From: Vicugna vicugna
Lineage: Eukaryota
Reading direction: 5' to 3'
DNA: 64,000 bases
Assembly: GCA_013265495.1 (NCBI GenBank)
Contig: MU058039.1
Span: forward strand, 1,056,591-1,120,590
Position numbers and translations under genes: made by a program
Shown: piece by piece, positions 49,601 to 52,600 of the stretch
How positions within the stretch are numbered: the first letter of the stretch is position 1
Layout of the letters: each line of letters opens with the position of its first letter
The notes under the pieces: model-generated
The model's input: only the letters and a program-made list of their open reading frames with translations
Databases searched by the model: none
What the model was told of the DNA's origin: nothing

Positions 49601-52600
49601 CCTTCTCACCAGTTCTGGTCCCTAAATGCTACTCCTATCTCAACACTGATCCTCAAATTCAGATGCCCCTATGTATAGCTTTTTCTGTCCAGTGTGACAG
49701 AAAATAAATTCTAATGCTGTTTCCTTAACATTTACCCTTCACTGACCTTGTCTCCACATCTTTGATCCCTAAATTCTTTCCCTTTCGGCTACATTCTAAT
49801 CCCTAAAACTCCTGACCCCAAAATGCTGATCTTAGCCTCTCTATCACTAACCTCCAACTGAGGTAAATGGGGTCTATTTGTCCCTAGGCTTGTACCCCAA
49901 ATCTGGCCTTTCTGCCTTATCTGACGCTCCTGGCCTCCAAACTCTAATTTTTCTGGTTTTCACTCTCAAACTCATCTTCACTCTACCCATCTTTGATCCT
50001 TAAACCCCAACTGTCACTCCTGGCTCTGCCCCCACCACGGCTCCGCCACTCCCCCCCCCATTAAGACCCTCCCCTTGTCCCTGCATCTGCACCTCCATTA
50101 AGGACCCTCCCCATCCCCACCACATTCTCTGAGACTCTCCTGAATGCTCACCTTTGGTGGAGGGGTGTGTCCAGGCCGCCGTGCTGTGGATCCGGAGAGG
50201 GCAGCCATTGAACAACTTTACAAGAAGGGCACATCCCTGGGTGGGCCACAGGGGCAGGGCAGCAGCCCATCCAGCAGAAGAGAGGAGGGGACAGGAAGGT
50301 GCCATGGTTAAGACTCTGGAGTGCCAAGGTTCAAATCCTGCCTCCTCAAAGGTTTATGACCTTGGAAAGCTACCTACCCCGCTGTGCCTCAGTTTCCCCA
50401 TTTTGAAATGGGGGATAATATCTATCTCTGTGCTATCTATCTCCATCTGTGAAGGTATACACCATGTAAAGACATGAGGTCAGTGTCTGGCACAGAGGAG
50501 CTGCTCAACAAATGCCACCTGTCATCATTATTAGTCTTCAGCTCCCCCACCCCAACCAGGTATCCCCAGCCCCAATCAGAGGTGTGAGTCCTCAGCACAG
50601 CTGGCCTCACCTTTCTCTTCATCTTTTCTTTCTTGGGGGGCAACAGCGGGGGCTGGTCAGGATCCCGGAGGGCTGGGTTCCAGAGTGAAGGTTCTGAGAT
50701 GGGGTGGGGAAAATCAGGCCCTAAGCTGGGGGAGGCCCAAGTTGGGGGGTACGGGGGGGAGGCCCACTGGCACAGCGGACCAGTACCCCTGGGCTCAGCT
50801 GCCCTTCATCCCCAGTCCCCCCAGGACCCTCGTCAGATGGAGAACGGAACTTGGGCTTTGGAAACAGAGAGGGAGGGTGGGGAAATACATGAGATGATCT
50901 CAGAGAGAGGGCACCCTGCAGTCTGCCTCTGCCAGGACTGATGCTGGATCATGGGTCTGACCCTCCCCACAATATCCGACCACCACTCCAGCCTTCCCCT
51001 CTAACCGCCCCCCAACAACATCAACATACTCCGGCAACTAAAGGGTGAATGCTGGGTACAGCAGGAGTTTCCGAGGACCAGCTACAGATGAGTGTTCATC
51101 AGGCTAAATACTTTGAGTCCCACCCCTAGGTTCAGGGATGCCACTTCCAGATCCCAGTGTGATCATCATCCTGGTCGTCCCAGACTTCAAGAGACCTAGT
51201 GTCCTAGACTCCAGCCCTGGAGAGCTCGGTATCCCAGCATCTGTGGACCCTGGCCTCCTGGCCCCCAGCCCCCCAGCTCTAGCCCAGGACCTTACCTTGG
51301 GGGGTAGAGGAGGAGGTATGTCTTCTGCGAGGGTGGGGCTGAAACACACAGATGGGTTAAGTGGGGGAGGAGGGTGTGGGGAGCAAGGACTGGGGTGGGT
51401 TAGGGCTGGAGGTCTGAGCTCAGGAGGGCCAGGATGTGACTCTGTCTGGGCTGGAGCTGAGGGTGAAAGGACTAATAACCATGATGATCATAGTAACAGC
51501 AACTCTTGGATATCAGTGTTCACAGTGCATTAGGTCTCTGCATCATCACAGCCACCTAGTAGCACAGGTCATATGAGCTCCTGGGGGTCGGGTTCTCACT
51601 TGGTGCCAGGCGCGTCGCATGGGAGCCTATTTTACAGATGAGATGTGTGGAATGGATCTCCCCCAGGCCTGGGGCTGAGGGAGATGGGGGCCTGGGTTGA
51701 CTCCTGGGGTTGAGGTTGAGTTCTGGGACTGAGGGTCTGGAGGGGGCAGAATTCCCAGGGGCTGAGGTTCAGTCTGAGTTTGGGTGAGAAGATGAAGAAA
51801 GATGAGGGCCAGGGGTTGAGGGTTACGGCTGCAGTTGAGGTCTGGGAGTTGGAGCAACATCTAGGAGGAGCTAGGGACTAGGATGTGGCAGGGGGTCCAG
51901 GGTTGAGTTGGGGTGAGGTTAGGGGTCAAGGGTTGGTGGGGAGGAGAGTGGGGGCTGGTCTGGGAGGGTCAGGGTTAGGGTAAAGGAAGGTGTGGGTACT
52001 GAGGGTCCAGCTAGGGGTCAGGGCTGAGTGGTGGAGGGAAGGCAGGGGCTGAGGTTGGGGTCATGGACGGTGGGGCTGGGTGGGGTCTGAGGCACTCTCT
52101 CACATGTCCACGTCATCGTAGTCATCGTCGGACTCTGACAGGTTCCTCCTGAGGAGGGACAGGTATGAGCCTCGGGCGGTCCCTACACAGATCCCAGCCC
52201 CCCTCCCATGCTGAGGGTCCCTGACCTAGGACTGCTGCTCTTGAAGTCTCCAGGGGGCTGTAAGCGAGCCTGTGGGATAGGAAAGAGTCAGCAGTGGCCC
52301 GGGGGAGGGGAGGGCGGCGGGGCAGTGGGGAGGCATCTCACCGTGTCAGCTGTGGGTCTGGACTCCATGCCTCTGAGCTTCCTGAACTCCATGTGCCGCC
52401 CTGGGGGGTGGGGTGGGGTGGGATGCAGGTGACACACAGTGAGCTGGGGACATGGATTCGGGAATAGAAAGAGTAGAACTGGGGTGGGGGAGTGGTCTGC
52501 AGCCAGGATCTTAGGACTGGAGCTGTCCCTTCAGGGGAGGGATCTTGGTTTACAGGGGTCTCATTTTGGGGTCAAGATTTGTGATCAGGGAGATGGGGGC

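Follow-up and report, generated by a model that had tools for sequence, protein, structure and literature searches.

A truncated MAP4K1 exon 18 in a vicuña genome window is most probably an assembly artefact

INTRODUCTION

False gene losses linked to GC content are common in older assemblies, where they concern 26-60% of genes according to the available text of one survey (PMC9516821). GC-rich coding sequence is missing from genes that are otherwise intact, and is present in a better assembly of the same species or of a close relative. The case analysed here, a truncated exon 18 of MAP4K1 accompanied by a second loss in RYR1, resembles these false losses but departs from them in two respects. 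The calls of the survey rested on mapped reads, mostly from the same individual, whereas the MAP4K1 call rests on sequence comparison and on run-level word shares. Moreover, the frameshift class of the survey consists of indels below 10 nt and, in the text available, none of its eight error classes is a gapless loss of the size seen here, i.e. about 90 and about 130 nt without any N (PMC9516821).

Two camelid protein records are the nearest comparators. The alpaca RefSeq protein XP_072823233.1 has the same 810 encoded residues and the same 31-exon layout; the window differs in having neither residues 444-453, nor the base that follows, nor the exon 18 donor. The Bactrian camel record UniRef100_A0A9W3GIS9 breaks off exon 18 close to where the window does, so that the tail is lost, but exon 19 and further exons are missing from it as well.

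The MAP4K1 product, HPK1, is a negative regulator of T-cell receptor signalling which acts on SLP-76 and Gads; a proline-rich region serves for its recruitment, and Gads binds its RxxK motif (available text of PMC7714195 and PMC6669380). HPK1-deficient mice are the likely phenotype model for a real allele, with the difference that they carry engineered nulls (same sources).

RESULTS

The MAP4K1 gene is intact outside exon 18

The window, a stretch of 64,000 nucleotides from Vicugna vicugna, contains the 3' part of RYR1 (plus strand), the entire MAP4K1 gene (minus strand, 58609-43588) and the start of EIF3K. RYR1 was identified by a PDB match; the name EIF3K is the one we presume from the peptides of the neighbouring gene, and we likewise take the RYR1-MAP4K1-EIF3K order to be the syntenic one. 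The MAP4K1 coding span (43588..58609) comprises 31 coding exons. Its assignment as the MAP4K1/HPK1 orthologue rests on its position between these two neighbours, on the succession of an N-terminal kinase, a proline-rich linker and a C-terminal CNH domain, and on top matches that are named MAP4K1. In the alpaca protein (XP_072823233.1, 821 aa; P0119), found through a cluster look-up, the kinase occupies residues 17-273 and the CNH domain residues 510-793.

When MAP4K1 was spliced by coordinates, exons 1-18 gave 443 residues and exons 19-31 gave 367; over the 810 encoded residues there are 0 mismatches when the alpaca protein is compared. The two share D354, D464 and T808, for which Camelus ferus has E, E and A respectively, and the window thus comes from an animal of llama/alpaca type. 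The exon 18 peptide, used as a query, matched 104 proteins out of 846 candidates, the Camelus MAP4K1 models at 100%. Save for the exon 18/19 boundary, every junction of the 31-exon model is GT-AG and the shortest of the remaining introns measures 72 nt; the truncation of exon 18 is therefore not a chance feature. No error was seen beyond the exon 18 lesion in the approximately 2.4 kb of coding sequence, in agreement with the initial annotation, which had described the other exons as intact. Neither second lesions nor amino-acid drift were found among the 810 residues and the other splice sites, and this absence of decay anywhere else in MAP4K1 rules against a fixed, lineage-wide loss of the gene (a pseudogene). 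At the start of exon 22 (49091, minus strand), the window, alpaca and camels all read a ten-residue sequence for which a gray whale model (P0005) has EMLFSSR.

Exon 18 runs into a stop codon and has no donor

Exon 17 (51296..51338, minus strand) ends in phase 0 with a GTAAGG donor. Exon 18 begins at 50855, after an AG acceptor and in phase 0, and reads from PKF down to 50724; this remnant (50724..50855, minus strand) encodes residues 400-443 and lacks residues 444-453, one more base and the donor. In the exon 18 frame the exon ends as GPPPA followed by TAG (50723-50721), the first codon of what is left of the intron. This intron 18 remnant (50694..50723, minus strand) consists of a pyrimidine tract and a CAG acceptor, and it is followed by an intact exon 19 (50611..50693, minus strand) going from phase 1 to phase 0, which shares D464 with alpaca where camels have E464; the phase at the start of exon 20 is 0. 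The final GT before exon 19 is at 50752, and there is none after the PPP stretch. The initial annotation had reported the run into TAG, the 33 nt devoid of a GT donor and phase 0 at the end of exon 17 and the start of exon 20, and the spliced minus-strand model bears these out, with the 33 nt at 50726-50694. The junction itself can be placed approximately, at 50724..50726 (minus strand) and in or beside the Ala443 codon, as judged from the read-through peptides described below. The window contains zero N, so the join carries no gap mark.

The missing piece comprises an exon tail and the 5' part of a short intron

The absent coding part corresponds to residues 444-453, TRSPHLTAHS. That a tail had been lost was correctly recognized before, but on the basis of the human form, S-TSSPHLTAHS; the camelid form is A-TRSPHLTAHS. 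About 31 nt of exon and about 60 nt of intron are absent, i.e. about 90 nt altogether, a size which presumes a camelid intron of about 93 nt, since it was derived from the read-through peptide of another mammal. This protein, P0001, reads through intron 18: LTAHS is followed by 31 residues ending in LGADFPHPIS and then by EPSLW, the pattern being a G after LTAHS, a W/G/R-rich part and a final stretch of 15 residues. The window, read in the exon 19 frame across the remnant, also yields 15 residues, and the ten encoded by 50694..50723 fit LGADFPHPIS of P0001 and MGADFPHPIS of P0121. By this fit, the short stretch before exon 19 is the genuine 3' end of intron 18, which upholds the earlier proposal that the end of the exon was lost together with its donor and the 5' part of the intron.

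Among the 21 residues with which the intron-derived part of P0001 begins, 71% are G, W or R; P0010 and P0035 are similar, which suggests that the lost part of the intron was G-rich on the sense strand. A deletion via CCCCAGC microhomology, as once suggested, is accordingly unlikely if the peptides of P0001 and P0010, both from other mammals, are a guide: the intron preceding the remnant would be G-rich, not C-rich. Displacement of the tail to another place in the window was rejected, the best six-frame match to the decapeptide being 5 of 10 residues. An alignment of five exon 18 sequences, run against metagenome contigs in search of intact camelid intron 18 DNA, had 589 pattern matches but 0 relatives among them, and two matches to an exact 20-mer in such contigs were both in unrelated DNA. 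A repeat search over 50560-50950 revealed nothing that delimits the junction. Exon 18 does contain a perfect 12-nt direct repeat (50728-50739 and 50755-50766, 27 nt apart) that corresponds to two GPP stretches; it lies within a motif of four G-runs on the plus strand (50728-50759) which ends beside the junction.

The exon 18 tail is conserved and present in camelids

TRSPHLTAHS is present in the RefSeq models of alpaca, wild camel, Bactrian camel and dromedary, and the alpaca record carries no low-quality label. Thus, at the protein level, the sequence missing from the window exists in related assemblies (XP_072823233.1 and the Camelus models). Among stored proteins with the exon 18 VRCAS motif, a set which includes many isoforms and near relatives and does not amount to 147 independent species, the tail is kept in 146 of 147 (142 by pattern and 4 more, with a Y variant, by inspection); its conservation extends from monotremes to primates. 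The sole exception is the Bactrian record cited above (UniRef100_A0A9W3GIS9, P0021), a fragmentary model. It leaves exon 18 after PQL, four residues ahead of the window break, and then continues into intron 19 as if it were coding, with 40 of 46 residues equal to those of window intron 19; exon 19 and further parts of the gene are absent from it, while the Bactrian RefSeq models are whole. P0021 may well have been built across an assembly gap at the same spot. Because it breaks beside that spot, an earlier model also failed at the exon 18 tail.

Proteins with other structures were also looked for. When the open reading frame that spans the junction in the exon 19 frame was the query, 12 candidates yielded 7 hits; none of these crosses the junction, a result that cannot show absence. 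With alpaca residues 300-400 as query, no camelid model without exons 18-19 was present among 79 hits, which were cluster representatives only, and these added no new model from a camelid.

A second gapless loss in the RYR1 gene

A large GC-rich exon of RYR1 (30498..31186, plus strand), which we take to be the counterpart of human exon 91, has a similar defect. Its 5' frame aligns with residues 4205-4290 of the RyR1 chain 9pwo_A and its 3' frame with residues 4334-4473, so that about 43 residues are absent between the two by an alignment whose reference is a solved chain from other mammals and not a camelid one. The exon measures 689 nt where about 819 are expected, i.e. about 130 nt are missing. 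The change of frame, near 30760, is visible in the list of open reading frames; it comes without any N and leads to a stop (30870-30872) well ahead of the C-terminal exons. This exon is the GC-richest of RYR1 and lies about 20 kb from the MAP4K1 lesion; a rough and incomplete scan of the gene gave 25 open candidate exons. The 200 nt round the join have a GC content of 0.85, and only 0.02% of 200-nt windows are as high.

Homozygous RYR1-null mice die at birth, and heterozygotes are normal (available text of PMC4735524); a live animal could therefore carry the RYR1 loss only as a heterozygote. Although a single real heterozygous RYR1 null is possible by itself, a common technical origin is far more probable than the coincidence of two rare null deletions 20 kb apart on a single haplotype, and the RYR1 loss is almost surely an assembly dropout. 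The same kind of error thus occurs a second time in the window, in a gene that cannot be lost.

The MAP4K1 site is also GC-rich, but only moderately so. The GC content of the exon 18 remnant, 0.68, is the second highest among the 31 MAP4K1 exons and the flank of the junction ranks in the top 2-3% when 100-nt windows are compared; over 200 nt the site has a GC content of 0.65 (top 3.7%), far under that of the RYR1 site. The MAP4K1 and RYR1 lesions thus fall in the top 2-4% and the top 0.02%, respectively.

Word shares in sequencing runs

The region 50150-51400 was represented by 125 sampled words, and their share was determined in 24 listed runs. At least half of the words were found in 14 runs, from six studies and two organisms; the others, six RNA runs (shares 0.10-0.30) and four runs at 0.00, were left out. 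Of the 14 values three were 0.98, four 0.94 and seven 0.92, and none was 1.00. Two of the three runs at 0.98 are marked as possible sources, and the 12 rows remaining without them include one 0.98 and no 1.00. A share of 0.98 means that 2-3 of the 125 words, anywhere in the region, are missing, for 2.8-3.1 expected across the junction with 0-3 shared letters, but one private SNP gives an equal share and contigs drop rare alleles. The shares are loosely compatible with absence of the junction even in the possible sources.

Predicted consequences of a real allele

The default outcome, left out of the list drawn up in the initial annotation, is the fusion of exons 18 and 19 into a single exon of 245 nt (50611-50855, minus strand), with the TAG at codon 444. 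With 30 intron bases retained for 31 exon bases lost, this exon has one base less than the 246 nt that residues 400-481 require. Skipping of exon 18 alone shifts the frame and leads to a stop within exon 19. Both stops are 12 junctions ahead of the last exon, and premature stops so far upstream should trigger nonsense-mediated decay. A real allele would thus most likely be a decay-triggering HPK1 null, and any protein escaping decay would consist of the kinase and part of the linker, without the CNH domain.

Two types of rescue had been envisaged. In-frame skipping of exons 18 and 19 is permitted by the phases, as had been noted, and would remove 82 residues (400-481); these include GPPPRTP and a ten-residue segment which we take to be the Gads SH3 ligand. 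For the cryptic GT at 50751..50752 (minus strand, CCC/GTACCC), the phase (1), the 59-nt intron and the loss of 20 residues are as described, but the donor is very weak: on a small, rough matrix made from 44 donors in the window it scores -4.2 bits, and none of the 44 real donors is lower (leave-one-out). The best in-frame cryptic GT (50766..50767, minus strand, CCA/GTGGGC) is also weak, with 2.3 bits (4 of the 44 real donors equal or lower), and would create a 74-nt intron at the cost of 25 residues.

DISCUSSION

The lesion in MAP4K1 is most probably an assembly artefact, with a probability that we put at about 0.88. The intact alpaca and camel reference proteins favour this reading, as does a second gapless loss, with a change of frame, in RYR1 in the same window. 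In the light of these observations, the initial view that an artefact was "equally possible" understated the case. Camelid MAP4K1 would be ordinary and intact. About 90 nt, made up of the C-rich end of exon 18 and, from a short intron, the two thirds on the 5' side, which are G-rich, would have been under-read or skipped, presumably because GC-rich or structured DNA drops out of reads, and the flanks would have been joined without a gap mark; the sequenced animal itself would then carry the intact sequence. Some points count against an artefact. The assembly is accurate elsewhere in the MAP4K1 coding sequence; the site is only moderately GC-rich, and exon 26, which is richer, is intact; and a real HPK1 null would be tolerable, as HPK1-null mice have been studied alive (available text of PMC7714195).

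A real New World camelid allele of HPK1 without the exon 18 donor, be it a null, an exon 18-19 skip or an in-frame fusion, is improbable. What little credit it deserves goes mostly to a recent, private deletion, probably heterozygous, which the assembly happened to pick and which would abolish HPK1 through decay. The join is clean and free of N, the rest of the gene is identical to that of alpaca, as that of a young allele should be, DNA with G-runs readily undergoes genuine deletions, and the fused exon as well as exon 18 skipping reach stops. HPK1-deficient mice, moreover, have stronger T-cell responses (available text of PMC7714195). Against such an allele, the RYR1 loss demonstrates that the assembly makes joins of this type, all 14 high-share runs, the two possible sources included, stay below 1.00, and a search that left out most subscription journals found no literature on MAP4K1 in alpaca.

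A change that has become fixed in a single New World camelid lineage and is rescued through splicing, by skipping of exons 18-19 or use of the donor at 50767 or 50752, is very improbable. The phases allow both rescues and the lack of decay elsewhere would suit a gene still under selection, but the alpaca reference is intact while being the same at every other residue, exon 19 keeps its sequence and both of its splice sites, the two cryptic donors score poorly, the 79 cluster representatives contain no camelid model lacking exons 18-19, and the runs of two organisms stop at 0.98. Equally improbable is an imprecise intron loss combined with a one-base miscall, which would give a full-length protein with ten intron-derived residues in place of TRSPHLTAHS: the near-equal numbers of exon bases lost and intron bases kept, and a five-C run directly before the junction, speak for it, but it requires two separate events in a coding sequence with no other indel, no protein among the 7 hits crosses the junction, and the tail is kept from monotremes to primates.

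If the lesion is an artefact, this genome joins flanks over GC-rich dropouts of about 100 nt without N, and any exon that seems lost or frameshifted in it has to be backed by reads; the RYR1 exon is then a convenient control. A real lesion would amount to a loss-of-function allele arisen in nature, in a kinase that is both a T-cell checkpoint and a drug target and in animals from which antibodies are produced, and as a null it would raise T-cell receptor output; the finding would be useful but modest, engineered nulls already existing. Literature searches that left out most subscription journals returned no natural camelid MAP4K1 allele, nothing on the GC-rich RYR1 exon 91, and nothing since 2023 on heterozygous HPK1 variants.

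Two further observations concern MAP4K1 in Camelus. In the Bactrian RefSeq isoform P0002, TAHS is joined to ALREPDQ, which makes it 7 residues shorter (window near 50672, minus strand); this join implies that the normal exon 18 donor is used with a second acceptor within exon 19. Finally, the dromedary records P0044, P0045, P0048 and P0120 (215-kb contig), together with P0121, P0127 and P0034, represent a diverged second copy of MAP4K1 with introns present. P0044 and P0120 show 13 differences over 126 residues with Camelus ferus, versus 0 for the dromedary RefSeq protein, and P0127, which has PPMKEK in common, was also found in Logan. This second copy may be a real partial duplicate in Camelus.
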